64,000 bases of DNA, taken from assembly GCA_963708075.1 (NCBI GenBank), contig OY970194.1, positions 928,001-992,000 of the forward strand. The letters run 5' to 3'. Every line of letters begins with the position of its first letter. Position 1 is the first letter of the stretch. Shown here piece after piece: positions 9,701 through 45,004 of this stretch. This DNA comes from Sedimentisphaerales bacterium. GTDB taxonomy: Bacteria > Planctomycetota > Phycisphaerae > Sedimentisphaerales > Anaerobacaceae. The notes beneath the pieces were generated by a model. The model searched no databases. It saw nothing but the letters and a program-made list of their open reading frames with translations, and was not told the origin of the DNA. The translations under genes and the position numbers were made by a program.

Positions 9701-9898
9701 ATGACGAAGAAGACGTTCGATGTCGTGGTGTTCATGCGGAAGCGACGCGAGGAACTCTCCCGTGCCTACGCCGGCCTCAGCGCCGAGCAGATTGAGGAAC
9801 GGGTGCAGCAGACGCTCAAGGATGATCCCCTGTGGAAGCCACTCTCGCGGAAGGAAGCCTCGTCGGACTCGAAGAGGAGAGCCAGAGATCATCCCTAG
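9701..9898 (+). CDS. Small hypothetical protein (antitoxin-like size and composition)
   Basis: 65 aa, KKTFDVVVFMRKRREELS; helical and charged. Confidence 0.55.
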   Translation: MTKKTFDVVVFMRKRREELSRAYAGLSAEQIEERVQQTLKDDPLWKPLSRKEASSDSKRRARDHP

Positions 9899-9954
9899 TT
9901 CTCTTGGATTGAAGGTCAATTTGGCAGGTGAATGATGGACTGGAGAGGAGTCCC

Positions 9955-11077
9955 ATGAATCTTGAGACTGAGGTTAGTCGCGAGCTCTGGCAGGCTGTTC
10001 GACGCAGCTATGGGTCGCAAGCTTGGTCCAACGCGGTTCTCGATTCGGTTCACTATCTGAGCGATGCGCTGCGAACGAAGACGGGTTTGCAGAGCGACGG
10101 CGTGGCACTGGTCGGCCAGGCATTAGGCGGGAGTGTCCCGAAGCTCAGGCTCAACCGTCTTCAGACCGAGTCAGAGAAGAGCGTCCAGGGCGGAGTCGAA
10201 CAACTTCTTCGCGGGGTGTACCAAGCCATCAGAAATCCGCAGCCACGAGCGTATCGAAGACAGGCAGGTTGACGCGGATGCCATCATCCTCTTTGTCGAT
10301 TACCTTCTGAGGGTGATTGGACACGCTCGCTCGGCGTTTTCGATCGATGAGTGCGTCGGGCGTGTCGTGGAAGAGAACTTCGTGCCAAGCGAACGATATG
10401 CAGGACTCTTGATTGAGGAAATCCCGAATCGCCAACGTTTGCAGGTGGCCTTGGCCGTGTACCAGAGGAAATTGGAAGCGGACGGGCGAAAGCTCCGGTA
10501 CTTCTTTGACGCCATCGTCTCAAAGCTGGCAGAAGAAGACTTGGGAGAACTCTTCCATGCGATCTCCGTTGACCTCCGGGAAAGCTCTGATGAGGATACT
10601 CTCCGGTGCGTGCTCCAGGCACTCAGTCCGGAGTGCTGGTCACGAATTGACGAGGCTGCGCGACTGCGAACCGAGAATCGAATCATCCAAGACCTTCGAG
10701 ATGGACGATACCTGCGCGAGGCTGACAAATGTCAGGCTGGAGCGATGGCGACTTGGTCCCGAAGCTTCTGGCCTTACTTTACCCTCAAGCAGGAAGTGAT
10801 GCAGACGATAATTGAAAAGCTGCGATCTACAAGCGTCGAAAGTCAAGACTATGCTTTGATGTATTGTTTCGGTGCCTTGGATCGTGTTGCAGACAAGCCG
10901 CCAGCATCACTTCAGACGATTCTGGCGGAGCGGCTCGAAGCTGGGGATACTCGCTTCAAGGAGGCTCTCGATGCCTCATCTCTTTGGTTCGACGGTGAAT
11001 GGGATGAGCGTGTGAAGAAAGCAATTGAGTCATTTCAGCCACGTGGCATAGTGCCTGATGAGGATATCCCTTTTTAA
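9955..11077 (+). CDS. TIGR02391-like protein with helical C-terminal domain; frameshift near 10240
   Basis: DGVALVGQALGG...PKLRLNRLQTESEKSVQ.G...GVYQAIRNP continues as SHE in another frame; GAGGAG ribosome-binding site. Confidence 0.75.
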
Positions 11078-11450
11078 GCCGAGATGAAGACTTGGAGATA
11101 CTTGGGACGGGGGTTAGGTTTCTCGGGGCCGGGGGCCGTGTCTTGATTATTCATTATCGGTGCCGGGATCGAATTGACACCCTATCGCAGACTTGGGCCT
11201 GGTGTGCGGAGCGGCTCGTAGCGTCTATTGCCAAATCCGGGAGGACGTGGGGTCAACTCTTGGCACTTGACAGACTCATAAGGCGTGGGGCGCACACCGA
11301 GTCCCCTCGACCCGGAAAGCCCTCCCAAAGCAATGCCGGACACGAATAATGAACAATTAGAATGCGACCCGGAGAACCCAGGGGAGAAGCGTAGACACCC
11401 GCGCCAGATACGGCATACACTGTAGCGGCGCATTGCTAACGGATCACACC

Positions 11451-11840
11451 TCAGGATTTGTAGACAACCTCCGTCGCTTGATGTCTTGCGGCGTATGCTC
11501 CAAAGTGTTCTCGCGCGACGGCTTCGCAGCTCCTCGATTTCAGGAACACGAATGCATCCTTCCGACCCTTTTCTTCGATATCGTAGAACCCCTCTTTTAC
11601 CAGGAGTATGGCTCTCGTACGGTTGACCGAGATCAATCCCAGAAGCTTGGTCTGCTCCTGCTCTTCGACCGTCAGATGCGGATAGCCGGCAGGCGTGTCT
11701 GTTGAAGCATTTGGGGGCGGCTCTACTCTTGCGATGACGAGCTTGCCCTTGTACGTGCGGGAGTTTTCAAGATCCACGACGATTCTCTCCACCACAGCCC
11801 TGAGGTCGTCATTCTGCGATTGACTCTGAATGGTCTTCAT
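11451..11840 (-). CDS. Hypothetical protein
   Basis: Protein-like ORF; GGAGAG upstream of ATG at 11840. Confidence 0.55.
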   Translation of the reverse strand: MKTIQSQSQNDDLRAVVERIVVDLENSRTYKGKLVIARVEPPPNASTDTPAGYPHLTVEEQEQTKLLGLISVNRTRAILLVKEGFYDIEEKGRKDAFVFLKSRSCEAVAREHFGAYAARHQATEVVYKS

Positions 11841-11867
11841 GAATATCTCTCCAGACATAGGGCCTGC

Positions 11868-12206
11868 TCAGCTATGAGCGGCCCTCACCGCAAACAGGTG
11901 CCCCATCAGATGCGCGAGTACCCATACCGCTACCGCACAGAGGGTCAAGATGATAGAATATCTACGCCAGTGAGTCATGGACGCAGGTCCGCCAGTCCCC
12001 GTGCATCCGCCGAGAAACCTGATGTCCATGTATCGGATCAGTACCAGGCTTACCAGGGCGATCCAGAAGACCCAATCGGCCGTTTGGAAAAAAACGCCCC
12101 CATTGTGAAAAATGAAGATCGCACAGAACGCGAGAAGAACGTTGCCAAGGAGCATCCACCAGAGCCTCACGGCCATTCCGAGTGGCGTGCTTTGCTTATC
12201 TCCCAT
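11868..12206 (-). CDS. Hypothetical membrane protein (3 TM)
   Basis: Three clear hydrophobic segments; start codon uncertain. Confidence 0.65.
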   Translation of the reverse strand: MGDKQSTPLGMAVRLWWMLLGNVLLAFCAIFIFHNGGVFFQTADWVFWIALVSLVLIRYMDIRFLGGCTGTGGPASMTHWRRYSIILTLCAVAVWVLAHLMGHLFAVRAAHS

Positions 12207-12608
12207 TTGGCCTTCGGGTGCAGGCATAAACCATCTCCCAACAATCACAATCTTGAGATTGACTGGCAGATGGCGGCCCGACCATCCCAACGCGCCTGCG
12301 AGGTCTGGATGAACCTCGCACCCTTTGAAGAATCACCCTACAGAGATGGAACCCTCATGTCAACAGCAATTTGCACTATGATGTCTGCTGGGACGTTACA
12401 AGCAGAGCAAGAAGACACCTGATCATCAGCGGCAGGGGCCGTGTCTTCACTGTTCATTGTCTGCGCCGTAGGTATATTGACGCCTTTTCGTGAGCTTGGG
12501 CCGGTGTCCACAGCACGCCCGAGTTCTTGGACCCTGACGATTCCCGGATCATCCGCATGGGCTAAAAGCCCATCCTGCATGCTGCAAGGAAGGCCTTGAG
12601 CCTCTTAT

Positions 12609-12663: not shown

Positions 12664-12728
12664 CGGCGCAGCCGTGCCCATGCCACGAAAGTAAGCCGCA
12701 CACCTGTCCCTGTGCAAAAAAGCAGGGC

Positions 12729-12757
12729 TGTAAGTCCCTGGGCCACAGGGGGTTACA
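12729..12757. promoter_or_regulatory. 11-7-11 imperfect palindrome, possible protein-binding or recombination site
   Basis: TGTAAGTCCCT-GGGCCAC-AGGGGGTTACA; 9 of 11 arm positions complementary. Confidence 0.4.
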
Positions 12758-12882
12758 AGTATTGTCCCTATCTAACAGAAATTCCTGTAACATTCTGCCC
12801 TCCGGGAGCGTCTATTCTGTATGGTCGTATGGCCATTGTACATCCGGTGGGGCCGCGCCCGGGCAGGCCTGCGGCCATGTTC

Positions 12883-12910
12883 AAATCAAAAATCAAACAT
12901 CAAAAATCAT
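12883..12910. repeat. Heptamer tandem repeat (AAATCAA)x4
   Basis: AAATCAA AAATCAA ACATCAA AAATCAT, just before GGAGG. Confidence 0.75.
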
Positions 12911-12928
12911 AGATTCCGGAGGTTTCCC

Positions 12929-14128
12929 ATGGGTAGCCAGGCACGAGTCGCCGCCAACCGTCGTAACGCCGCCAAATCCACCGGACCCCGCACCACAGAG
13001 GGCAAGGCCGTCGTGGCGCAGAACGCCGTCAAGCATGGCCTGTGGGCCCGCCAGGCCGTGCTCAGGAACGAAGATTCGCAGGAATTCGAGCTGCACCGCA
13101 GCCGGATGCTCCGGAAGCTGGACCCGGATGGGCCGGAGCAGGAGGCGATGGCGGAACGCATCGTCGGTCTCTGGTGGCGGCTCAAACGGGCCGAACGCAT
13201 GCAGGATGAGGCCCTCGATTATCTGATCGAGGCGGATCGCGGCAGCGACTGGGTCAAGTGCTGCCGGGAGGACGGCGATCCATCGGCCAGGGCGGCGATG
13301 AGCTTCGGCCGGGCGGTCGCGCGAGACTTCGCCGAGACAAGGACCCTCGACCGGCTGACGATGCACGAACGCCGGATCGAGAGCAGCCTGTACAGGACGA
13401 TGAAAGAGCTTCGGCTGGTCCGGCGGGAGCAAGAAGGGCAGGACGGGCACGGGGCATCGAGTTCGCACAATGTGAGGAATCACGACGGGTGGCAGCGGCA
13501 AGCGCAGCCTGCGGAGCTTGCCGATGGTGTTGGGCTGCATCCTGACGCCATCGGCAAGCCTGCGCTTGCCGCTGCCACCCGGCAGGGGACGAGCGATTCT
13601 GCGAAACAAAGCCAATTCGAGGCGCCTCAGGAAGACCATCGCCAAGCTTCGCTTGACGCTGCCACCCGGGAGGGGACGAGCGATTGTGTGAAACAAAGCC
13701 AATTCGAGGAGCCACAGGAAGACCATCGCCAAGCTGCGCTTGACGCTGCCACCCAGCAGGGGACGAGCGATTCTGTGAAACAAAGCCAATTCGAGGCGCC
13801 TCAGGAAGACCATCGCCAAGCTTCGCTTGACGCTGCCACCCGGGAGGGGACGAGCGATTGTGTGAAACAAAGCCAATTTGAGGCGCCTCAGGAAGACCAT
13901 CGCCAAGCTTCGCTTGACGCTGCCACCCAGCAGGGGACGAGCGATTCTGTGAAACAAAGCCAATTTGGGGCGGCGGAAGGCGGGCACTGTCCACCCTGCA
14001 GAACTGCGAACGGGGACGGCAACGCGAAACAAAGCCAATGCCGTAAGCCGGCCGCGGGTGCCGGCGCTATGCTGCGGCCTCGGCCACGGGTCGCATACCA
14101 CTGCCATGACATCGCCCGCTCGTATTGA
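12929..14128 (+). CDS. ANRRNA-motif hypothetical protein with a repeat-derived C-terminal half
   Basis: GGAGG then ATG at 12929; ANRRNAAKSTGPRTTEGK..QNAVKHGL N-terminus; helical domain ending ERRIESSLYRTMKELR; then reads through repeats. Confidence 0.75.
   Translation: MGSQARVAANRRNAAKSTGPRTTEGKAVVAQNAVKHGLWARQAVLRNEDSQEFELHRSRMLRKLDPDGPEQEAMAERIVGLWWRLKRAERMQDEALDYLIEADRGSDWVKCCREDGDPSARAAMSFGRAVARDFAETRTLDRLTMHERRIESSLYRTMKELRLVRREQEGQDGHGASSSHNVRNHDGWQRQAQPAELADGVGLHPDAIGKPALAAATRQGTSDSAKQSQFEAPQEDHRQASLDAATREGTSDCVKQSQFEEPQEDHRQAALDAATQQGTSDSVKQSQFEAPQEDHRQASLDAATREGTSDCVKQSQFEAPQEDHRQASLDAATQQGTSDSVKQSQFGAAEGGHCPPCRTANGDGNAKQSQCRKPAAGAGAMLRPRPRVAYHCHDIARSY
13487..13580. repeat. REP-like family A, full copy in frame inside the CDS
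   Basis: Inverted-orientation homolog of 1349-1442; translates as GWQRQAQPAELADG...IGKPALAAATR. Confidence 0.85.
13583..13966 (+). repeat. 87-bp tandem repeat x4.4 with an ABABA higher-order pattern
   Basis: Units start at 13583, 13670, 13757, 13844 and 13931; each full unit has GAAACAAAGCCAATT plus CCATCGCCAAGCT(T/G)CGCTTGACGCTGCCACCC. Confidence 0.95.
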
Positions 14129-14220
14129 TCGCCGGGAAGGACCGGCAACGCGGTTCGAATCCGCCACCGAGTGCCGGGCGCACCCCATGTCAGTGTGCCT
14201 GTAAAGACAACCTGGCAGTC

Positions 14221-14313
14221 GGGTGGCAGCGGCATGCGGAGAGCAGCGGAGCTTGCCGATGGTGTTGGGCAATTGAGGAGCCAGCGGCAAGCCGGCGCTT
14301 GCCGCTGCCACCC
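14221..14313. repeat. REP-like family A copy
   Basis: GGGTGGCAGCGGCA...TGCCGCTGCCACCC; preceded by a family C half at about 14152-14185. Confidence 0.85.
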
Positions 14314-14552: not shown

Positions 14553-15479
14553 ATGATAGTCATCAAGGTTGATAAGATAAGTAAGTCGTTCGGCAAGGTC
14601 GGTGCGGTGTGCGACCTGAGCTTCGAGGTCGAGGAGGGCACCTGCTTCGGGCTTCTGGGGCCGAACGGGGCGGGCAAGACGACCATGATGAAGATGGTCT
14701 ACGGCCGCAGCCGGCGGAATGATCATGACGGCGGGATCATCGACATCTTCGGCTACGACCCGGCACGCGATGAGCTGGCGATCAAGGCGCTCTCCGGCGT
14801 CGTGCCCCAGGAGAACAACCTCGACGAGGAGCTCAACGTCATCCAGAACCTGATGATCTACTCGAAGTTCTACGGCCTGTCGGCCAAGGTGGCCCGGGAG
14901 CGGATCGAGGTGCTCCTCGATTTCCTGGAGCTCTCCGAGAAGATCCGTGCGAGGATCAAGGAACTGTCGGGCGGAATGCAGCGGCGGCTGGTCATCGCCC
15001 GTGCCCTGTTGAACAATCCCAAGCTGCTCATCCTCGACGAGCCGACCACCGGCCTGGACCCACAGGTCCGCCACCTCATCTGGGACAAGCTCCGGCAGCT
15101 CCGGGCCCAGGGAACCACCATCCTGCTGACCACCCACTACATGGAAGAGGCGTTCCAGATCTGCGACAGGGTCCTGATCATGGATAAGGGCAAGAGGGTC
15201 CTGGAGGACGATCCGCACAAGCTGCTGGCGGAAAACATCGAGGCCTACGTCATGGAGGTGCCGATCACGAATGGCACGCCGGTCATCCATGAGTCCGACC
15301 TGCCCGAGAGCGTCCGCCTGGACCGGACCGAGGGCACCATGCGGTTCTACGCAGATGGAATTGATCAGCTCAAAGGCATGGCCGACAAGCTCTCCGGCCA
15401 GAACTATTACCTGAGGCAATCGACGCTCGAAGACGTATTCCTCAAGACGACCGGGAGGATGCTCAATGAAAAGCAGTAG
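14553..15479 (+). CDS. ABC-2 exporter ATP-binding protein (NodI-like)
   Basis: GPNGAGKT, LSGGM, LILDEPTTGLD and TTHYMEEA motifs. Confidence 0.92.
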   Translation: MIVIKVDKISKSFGKVGAVCDLSFEVEEGTCFGLLGPNGAGKTTMMKMVYGRSRRNDHDGGIIDIFGYDPARDELAIKALSGVVPQENNLDEELNVIQNLMIYSKFYGLSAKVARERIEVLLDFLELSEKIRARIKELSGGMQRRLVIARALLNNPKLLILDEPTTGLDPQVRHLIWDKLRQLRAQGTTILLTTHYMEEAFQICDRVLIMDKGKRVLEDDPHKLLAENIEAYVMEVPITNGTPVIHESDLPESVRLDRTEGTMRFYADGIDQLKGMADKLSGQNYYLRQSTLEDVFLKTTGRMLNEKQ

Positions 15480-16257
15480 CCCGGTTGCCTATCCGTCGCT
15501 GGCCCAGAGGCTCTTCAGCGTCTGGTACCGGCACGTTCGCGTGTACACGAAGAACCTGGTCAGCAACGGCCTGCCGCCGTTTCTGGAGCCGCTGCTGTTC
15601 CTGGCGGGCGTCGGACTGGGCCTGGGCAAGTATATCACGGAGAGCATGGACGGGCTCTCGTACATCGATTTCCTCGGGACCGGCCTGCTGGTCACTGCCG
15701 CGATGTTCACGGCCGCCTACGAATGCACCTTCGGCACGTTCATCCGCCTGGAGTTTGAGAAGGTCTATGACGGCATGCTCGCGGCGCCGATCACCGTCAA
15801 CGACCTGATCATCGGAGAGATCATCTGGGCGGGCACCAAGGGCCTGTTCTTCACGTTCGCCGTCCTGTGCATCCTGACGCTCTTCGGGATCATCCATCTG
15901 CCGGAGGGCCTGCTTGCTCCGCTGGTCGGCTTTCTCACGGGCCTGATGTTCGGGACCCTGTCGCTGTGGATCACGTCGTTCGTCAAGACGATCAACCACT
16001 TCAATTTCTACCTCACGGGCATCATCTCGCCGATGTTCTTCTTCTCCGGGGTGGTCTTTCCGATCAGCAACCTGCCGCCGTCCGTGCGGTTCATCGCCGA
16101 GATCGTGCCGCTGACGCATTCGGTCCGCCTGGCGAGAGCCGTAAGCACAAACCATTATCAACTCTCCCTGCTGGCCGACCTGCTCTATATCGCCGTATTC
16201 ATTGCGATCACCGGCTGGCTGGCCATCCGGCGTCTCAGAAAGCGGCTGATCACCTGA
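15466..16257 (+). CDS. ABC-2 exporter permease (NodJ-like)
   Basis: Six TM helices; EPLLFL, PMFFFSGVVFP and PLTH motifs. Confidence 0.9.
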   Translation: MKSSSPVAYPSLAQRLFSVWYRHVRVYTKNLVSNGLPPFLEPLLFLAGVGLGLGKYITESMDGLSYIDFLGTGLLVTAAMFTAAYECTFGTFIRLEFEKVYDGMLAAPITVNDLIIGEIIWAGTKGLFFTFAVLCILTLFGIIHLPEGLLAPLVGFLTGLMFGTLSLWITSFVKTINHFNFYLTGIISPMFFFSGVVFPISNLPPSVRFIAEIVPLTHSVRLARAVSTNHYQLSLLADLLYIAVFIAITGWLAIRRLRKRLIT

Positions 16258-44917: not shown

Positions 44918-45004
44918 GGGTGGCAGCGTCAAGGCCGAAGGCCTTGGCGATGGTTGCATGCATCCCAAAAGGCCATCGCCAAGCTGCGCTTGACGCTGCC
45001 ACCC
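44918..45004. repeat. REP-like family A variant, full copy
   Basis: GGGTGGCAGCGTCAAG...CTTGACGCTGCCACCC; its 3' half matches the unit repeated at 13583-13966. Confidence 0.85.

Follow-up and report, generated by a model that had tools for sequence, protein, structure and literature searches.

A polar repeat element linked to a very large protein family without a name lies between native and foreign-type genes in a Sedimentisphaerales genome

The locus described here lies in a window of 64,000 nucleotides (the whole stretch of DNA that was analysed) and belongs to a set of about 40 copies of a hitherto undescribed repeat element with a fixed direction, which is linked to a very large protein family without a name. 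The repeat end of the element faces native genes, its promoter end faces foreign genes that can be swapped, and we have here what may be a new gene-moving or gene-exchange device. The element is real and carries a strong and surprising genomic signature, while its mechanism is putative. Our tentative reading, to which we give somewhat less than an even chance, is that of a polar, protein-bound recombination or mobility element in which the array would be one end point of an exchange or integration that is completed on the promoter side. A search of mainly openly accessible literature found no description of the element, the gene or the arrays. About half of bacterial transfer hotspots have no recognisable mobile element and 27% have neither integrase nor transposase (PMC5635113). 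A dispersed, oriented element that marks one edge of a hotspot is a concrete candidate for a further transfer mechanism. It is also an entry point to a protein family that has no Pfam, NCBIfam or PHROG name and of which 23,107 clusters (at 50% identity) match the protein. Even if a neutral explanation holds, the element still marks accessory-gene islets.

The module starts on the plus strand with an A-tract (12711-12728), an edge that six paralogous copies have in common about 217 nt before the ATG. A dyad of 11-7-11 form and TAA-N19-TTA type follows (12729-12757), the same kind of dyad that is found within the conserved 88-92 nt unit of other arrays. Next on the plus strand come a promoter-like block, recognised by sequence conservation (TGYAAC...CGTCT...TATGG, 12784-12824), putatively of ECF-sigma type, and a heptamer tract with a GGAGG ribosome-binding site (12881-12922). 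The preliminary description had placed this palindrome and the heptamer tract upstream of the gene, and both are in the sequence. The ANRRNA open reading frame (12929-14128, plus strand) has 399 codons. It starts with a conserved 170-aa domain (12929-13438) made of a basic N-terminal arm and an antiparallel helical hairpin; the remainder (13439-14128) is a variable tail that is read through the array, which in this copy sits inside the reading frame. The tail contains a full family-A REP-like hairpin (13487-13580), within which the tandem unit begins, and six direct motif copies (13599-14040, plus strand) with cores at 13603, 13690, 13777, 13864, 13951 and 14026. The conserved 3' tail of the gene-bearing subfamily (14040-14186, plus strand) ends in a family-C half, a sequence with 65 genome matches, which forms the 3' edge of the module. 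A second family-A copy (14221-14313) lies outside the module, and one congener has family A at the equivalent position without the module. The family-A copies at 13487 and 14221 and the family-C half had also been listed previously, and all are present at the reported places.

On the motif side the module is followed by native ABC-transporter genes (14553-16257, plus strand), and the motif was absent upstream of their orthologues in three of three congeners examined. On the promoter side (9701-12290) open reading frames and Pfam indicate accessory-type genes, namely a 65-aa ORF, a Hypoth_Ymh ORF, a 314-aa ORF in another frame and two minus-strand ORFs. Part of the region 11446-12331 has matches of about 70-77% in a few congeners. 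Over flanks of 2.5 kb the GC content is 0.549 on the promoter side versus 0.598 on the other side. As an observation in its own right, the Hypoth_Ymh ORF runs on in another frame into the 314-aa ORF (9928-11077), and the two are possibly one frameshifted defence-type gene.

The six copies of GAAACAAAGCCAAT that had been claimed for the array were confirmed at all six positions. They are all the matches within the window, where 0.09 are expected, and none of 100 shuffles reaches six. The motif is constant, as had been proposed, but it is longer than the 14 bp first given, about TGCGAAACAAAGCCAATT. The family-A 3' half is indeed carried by spacers 1-4, a duplicated 74-nt spacer (13617-13950, plus strand): 36 nt in each (13632-13667, 13719-13754, 13806-13841 and 13893-13928) match positions 52-87 of the free copy at 44918-45004 at 94-97%. 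An 87-bp tandem repeat (4.9 copies, 92% matches) that sets in within the full family-A hairpin makes up units 1-4, which thus represent one duplicated unit and not four captures. Spacer 5 (13965-14025, plus strand) is unrelated to spacers 1-4 and has no BLAST match outside arrays (E<0.01); by BLAST clustering it groups with a class of 24 spacers in 19 arrays. GTAG REP families are described in PMC3733652; the labelling of spacer 5 as half of such a REP rests on appearance.

The motif is conserved as nucleic acid rather than as peptide. It is enriched next to homologues of the gene, being found within 2 kb downstream of 59 of the 80 homologous genome loci, and 133.7 kb of DNA upstream of these 80 loci contain no motif. 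The 132 sense copies downstream fall into the three frames in numbers of 51, 37 and 44, about 80 lie beyond the stop codon, and a further 11 copies are antisense. In 150 homologue tails the motif is read 130, 106 and 35 times as TKPI-, KQSQ- and NKAN-type peptides, with 2 cases in conserved domains. Among selected copies the wobble positions are 97-100% fixed, and no frame is open in 25 of the 30 arrays without a gene. Conservation merely as KQSQF with synonymous changes does not agree with three frames and fixed wobble positions, and the three-frame reading together with the closed frames of gene-less arrays rules out an ordinary coding tandem repeat. With the linkage to the gene, the three-frame reading supports the earlier proposal of a protein-plus-motif-array module. 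The odd hypothetical-protein tails with KQSQF, NKPN or TKPI are hence three readings of one DNA motif. In the gene-bearing copies of this genome the reading frame stays open through arrays with out-of-frame units, and at seven of nine loci the predicted protein closes with much the same peptide, of RPRVAY type, a hint that translation across the array may be under selection. We also observed a subfamily whose gene tails hold an antisense motif together with one or two sense motifs, making a divergent pair (L005, L012, L020, L023, L030, L031, L033, L038, L039).

The genome itself (G000) is a single contig of 7.5 Mb. It contains 218 copies of the exact 13-mer, and a relaxed pattern finds 263 copies in 54 clusters. 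Forty of the clusters are multi-copy, and each of these is on one strand; since two of them are parts of a single interrupted locus, the number of elements is given as 39. Nine elements are gene-bearing and 30 are gene-less arrays. The array comes 56-265 nt after the conserved domain in all nine gene loci. Many gene-less arrays retain one of two promoter-like leaders, with putative sigma-type labels, many keep a ribosome-binding site and start codon, and some a decayed gene start. Both ends could be placed for six gene-bearing modules (the other three are not fully placeable), and these paralogues have the 5' edge and the 3' edge at the family-C half in common, within differing surroundings. 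The common 3' end of the gene-bearing copies lies about 150 nt past the last motif and not at the motif itself. No terminal inverted repeat or target duplication recurs consistently in the six modules, where direct matches reach at most 4-5 nt and inverted ones 4-6 nt, and this speaks against a MITE. An inverted motif is absent upstream of five of five elements from the G202 genus. In many G202 elements (L104-L121) an imperfect inverted repeat of about 110 nt lies about 550 nt before the first motif and may be their 5' end. One gene copy of this genome (C1:4778158-4780460) has a frameshift near codon 81 and about 1.3 kb inserted in its array. A KOPS-like replichore bias of the elements was considered and rejected (16 leading vs 23 lagging).

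The unit that recurs across genomes is motif, dyad, motif at a fixed spacing of 88-92 nt and free of REPs (26 aligned cases, with one case that has no dyad excluded), and further motifs often lie 10-11 nt beyond it. The unit lengths are without clear helical phasing (p=0.14 for a period of 10.5; p=0.018 for a period of 11, among five periods tried). The TAA-N19-TTA dyad occurs at 142 sites in this genome versus 28-64 at other spacings. Within 1.2 kb of arrays lie 31 of the 142 sites, most copies being away from arrays, and only 2 of the 142 are tRNA-linked. About 100 sites are over background, most of them far from arrays and tRNAs (the dyad of the window is C1:940729-940757), and the dyad may be the site of a host protein, e.g. 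a regulator or nucleoid protein.

These features bear on the idea that the element makes a promoter-driven, many-sited RNA that either the ANRRNA protein or an RNA-binding protein of the host would use as a sponge or scaffold, and that acts on the expression of neighbouring or foreign genes. We consider it improbable. The placement of all motifs of an array on one strand, the A/C-rich motif, the excess of G over C in 219 of 249 spacers and the even distribution over the replichores agree with an RNA, as do the leaders, ribosome-binding sites and start codons of gene-less copies; the promoter-like leaders in many of these fit an RNA role better than our preferred reading, and we count them against the latter. 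However, the 27 core units yielded 0 pairs and no consensus RNA structure. The 88-92 nt spacing around the dyad and the motif tandems at 10-11 nt resemble duplex-DNA geometry, and an RNA does not predict the variable site occupancy and the one-sided cargo described below.

The chief property of the element is its polarity. On the promoter side there are 2-3 kb of foreign-type, fast-turning genes, and on the motif side there are native genes. With composition as a proxy for foreign origin, the hexamer score over 2.5 kb flanks points to more atypical DNA (a lower score) beyond the promoter end than beyond the motif end for 35 of the 39 elements (p=1e-8), and flank GC over the elements is 0.576 on the promoter side versus 0.610 on the motif side. 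An atypical flank is found on the promoter side only in 24 elements, on the motif side only in 0, on both sides in 3 and on neither in 12, the last of which we count against our reading. Control cases of a gap leading to a gene start (gaps of at least 500 nt, n=745) gave 131 vs 114 for the same two sides. The atypical zone extends over about 2-3 kb and then fades. In other genomes, GC is lower upstream in 30 of 40 gene loci with motif (p=1.7e-5), and 10 gene loci without motif show no GC trend; 30 of the 80 loci did not have enough flank for this comparison. Genomes in these comparisons are related and not independent samples, so that p-values overstate. A Pfam scan covered 71 flank proteins picked by hand; they came from the window, from G202 and from 20 of this genome's 39 elements. 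Many have no match; the matches include ResIII, HEPN-nucleotidyltransferase, N6 methylase, nSTAND3, PD-(D/E)XK, DUF4238 and transposases, with housekeeping genes further out. A common cassette boundary was not found in the cargo, in that there is no boundary 12-mer beyond general repeats. At one gene-less array, three tandem paralogous small orphan genes lie directly on the promoter side (L197:408-2222).

The same polarity is seen when congeneric genomes are compared. In the G202 genus, six stretches chosen around elements were compared with up to four congeners, and in six of six the accessory genes (unmatched or non-syntenic) are on the promoter side and the conserved genes on the motif side. 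At five orthologous sites the element occupies 10 of 19 positions, which represent congeneric species and not strains. Common host DNA resumes right after the last motif, and upstream DNA is common in 0 of 18 informative comparisons. At three G202 sites studied in detail the element is present in 4/5, 5/5 and 1/5 genomes with different genes beside each; at the first of these one genome has the gene, and the fifth genome is without element and cargo. Over the detailed sites one copy includes the gene start, and two genomes are without both element and cargo. At one G202 site the cargo is present without the strict motif in 3/4 congeners. For two sites of the present genome, the motif occurs in 0/9 congener gaps fetched, 7/9 of which hold other genes, and the cargo there has no match in 17 congeners. 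Gaps thus vary in congeners without the element, so hotspots exist with or without it, and a required sedentary platform is ruled out. We have also dropped the notion of the elements as general rearrangement breakpoints, since in 20-kb comparisons the flanking core blocks usually stay linked.

Hotspots that vary without the element are what one would expect if it were a selfish, oriented intergenic element that settles or survives beside native genes at existing hotspots, with the cargo turning over independently by homologous recombination between flanking core genes. According to PMC5635113, many bacterial hotspots have no mobile elements and are thought to turn over in this way. In the present genome 28 of the 39 elements point into a co-directional gene. 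A selfish element would, however, need an extra rule for the 24:0 polarity, of which the oriented control gaps show nothing, and the REP-A copies of this genome have no link to atypical DNA (31/141). We regard this explanation as unlikely, although it deserves to be kept in mind. The polarity data and the location of the array next to native promoters or gene ends would also suit a boundary or insulator, in which an array-bound protein protects native genes against silencing or read-through that spreads out of foreign DNA, with selection for it setting in once such DNA is in place. Since congeners have foreign genes at the same sites without the element, and since the spread of copies is left unexplained, we think this quite improbable.

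Our preferred reading of a polar, protein-bound recombination or mobility element builds on the observed anatomy, the gene-motif linkage in several phyla, the 88-92 nt geometry, the presence or absence at orthologous sites and the one-sided arrangement of foreign-type and native genes. It draws further support from the joint occurrence of gene and repeat, from the common ends of the six paralogous modules, and from the phage genes with the arm and the viral-collection loci described below. It is weakened by hotspots that vary without the element, by the missing terminal repeats and target duplication, by the common 3' end past the last motif and by the lack of an exact motif near terminase-position phage genes. 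The complete form consists of dyad, promoter, ANRRNA gene and array of direct motifs, and most copies have lost the gene and retained leader and array. The ANRRNA protein may be a non-catalytic, probably oligomeric binder of motif DNA that uses its terminase-like basic arm and acts in trans on gene-less copies. The bound array would mark one end of a recombination or integration event. Host recombination would settle the other end, at a distance of several kb beyond the promoter, and in this way the element would arrive with, or exchange, accessory genes on that side. Repeated exchange and slippage between arrays would lengthen the arrays and shuffle the spacer classes, with trapped REP halves and heptamer tracts as probable passengers. 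A bolder version, possible but doubtful, is an integrase-free, multi-copy gene-exchange system, in which the terminase-arm protein on polar arrays would recruit host or phage recombination (or packaging) machinery for the one-sided uptake or replacement of 2-3 kb of defence-type and orphan genes at dozens of hotspots per chromosome.

The protein itself gives few clues, and the lack of a recognised catalytic family or fold also counts against our reading. Pfam, NCBIfam and PHROGs made no assignment for the window protein and 92 homologues, a PDB sequence search assigned nothing, Foldseek against the pdb and viral sets gave 0 matches at E<=0.001, and the ESM Atlas returned unnamed clusters only. 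Six homologues that were looked up are named 'hypothetical protein' only. The protein model is all-helical (pLDDT 87), and VIA-align found only generic helical hairpins (best Z 8.1, rmsd 4.9 over 97 residues). Residues 3-45, the basic arm of about 45 aa, have counterparts in phage genes immediately ahead of the gene for the terminase large subunit; one of these phage genes has a Terminase_4 domain. We infer that the protein binds nucleic acid, as had been suggested from its basic N-terminus. In its arm the protein resembles P27-type terminase small subunits (Pfam Terminase_4). However, the resemblance is confined to the arm, the window protein has no TerS-domain match and no TerL neighbour, the chromosomal elements examined have no packaging genes, and no exact motif lies close to the phage genes that carry the arm at the terminase position. 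At four viral-collection loci an ERF-type gene is directly followed by a full-length homologue, with the motif at -29/-30 and YqaJ before ERF where seen; three other viral loci have the motif antisense just past the stop, and a downstream sense motif is found in 1 of 23 viral loci. The viral-collection elements L083-L087, L090, L091 and L101 bring together a full-length ANRRNA homologue, the recombination genes YqaJ and ERF, and a module of terminase, DUF5681 and ParB-methylase, with the parts not all seen in each, and have the motif at a fixed place beside the homologue. Separately, phage genes ahead of terminase large subunit and portal (L088, L092, L093, L095, L096, L099) have a basic arm, a Cys-rich segment and a Terminase_4-like end, and phrog_26872 was matched in five scanned phage genes of this pre-terminase, basic-arm group.

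Gene and repeat go together across genomes. Within the order (60 genomes), 12 genomes have 10-220 motif copies and 10 of these 12 have the gene, the two gene-less ones being assemblies of 240 and 330 contigs; among the 48 genomes with at most 4 copies, 4 have the gene. All eight genomes of the G202 genus carry 56-100 motif copies. A phylum sample of 150 genomes has 0-6 copies, mostly background, and the gene in 8. Related gene-motif pairs were found in Planctomycetota, Acidobacteriota, Alphaproteobacteria and Verrucomicrobiota.

Repeats of the genome itself are over-represented in the spacers. A 14-mer with at least 10 copies outside arrays is contained in 89 of 229 spacers (those of 25 nt or more), compared with a mean of 33 and maximum of 42 in intergenic controls and 9 in random ones. 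This enrichment upholds one side of the proposal that the motif collects REP halves, but a functional set of halves is not supported: the number of distinct spacer classes is 101 vs 103.6 in shuffles, which led us to reject 'one spacer class per array', the cross-genome unit is REP-free, and most arrays are gene-less. An acquisition site for REP halves that yields guide-like RNAs or decoys against the genome's repeat families is in our view very improbable, even though 68 of the 70 commonest repeat words are never antisense in spacers (the words overlap and were chosen on the sense strand) and one spacer class stands first in 15 of 30 gene-less arrays. Against guides or decoys, unit lengths vary from 32 to 375 nt and the spacers fall into a few old classes common to arrays, with a same-strand match in 164 of 228 (median 86%; classes defined by BLAST clustering alone). 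REPs are also absent between motifs in G202 core units, and reiteration of REPs in tandem with flanking DNA is known (PMC3733652). Paralogues with at least 90% amino-acid identity carry different spacer strings. The REP halves thus look like passengers of unit duplication and exchange and not like a curated guide set. The unit lengths and the sharing of spacers between arrays likewise speak against a CRISPR array, as does Rfam, which returned hairpin matches below threshold and no family at gathering score.

The element differs in defining features from NIME arrays, RAYT/REP, IS91/ISCR, MITEs and integrons as well as CRISPR. Among the closest known systems are the neisserial NIME arrays, which, like the present arrays, have a constant short repeat between spacer families (many, of about 50-150 bp) and are dynamic (PMC1797815). 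They were hypothesised to be recombinase-binding sites that promote the exchange of adjacent genes (PMC1797815), and by analogy our array may work in a similar way as the end of an exchange. However, the NIME repeat, dRS3, is inverted and 20 bp long, and NIME arrays mostly keep syntenic positions (PMC1797815), whereas here the motif is asymmetric, direct and on one strand per array, and occupancy is patchy (10/19 orthologous sites; 0/9). Arrays led by a promoter and a dedicated gene, with a one-sided effect, further set our element apart from NIME. RAYT/REP(IN) systems follow a scheme of autonomous and non-autonomous copies, and here too each genome that has the gene in one or a few copies tends to have tens of dispersed repeats without it. 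Unlike RAYT, the protein is without a Y1/HUH domain (no Pfam match, all-helical model), and the repeat is no hairpin and has REPs as passengers only. Y1 transposases occur in 55 of 61 genomes, too common to inform, and were not found in G202. IS91/ISCR elements capture DNA by one-ended rolling-circle transposition, and our element is like them in that passenger genes lie upstream of the gene while the end downstream of it is defined. A Y2 transposase was found neither in the element nor in the 13 motif-rich genomes including this one, and in 5 of 61 overall (assemblies incomplete). In integrons the gene is transcribed away from the variable gene tract with a dyad in between, an arrangement that is also seen here. 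Unlike an integron, the element has no integrase and exists in 39 copies with patchy occupancy; the 12-mer comparison of its cargo gave no repeated cassette boundary. The four Phage_integrase matches of this genome, by eye XerC, XerD and two shorter enzymes, are not at any element. The att site of R. etli IntA was set aside as well, being a different 23-bp palindrome (PMC4928290).

Finally, a short repeat lies between the accessory genes of the window (11125-11160 and 12435-12468). It has 10 matches in the genome. Seven of them are found beside arrays, at most 5 kb away and on the promoter side, and five of these seven have the same orientation.
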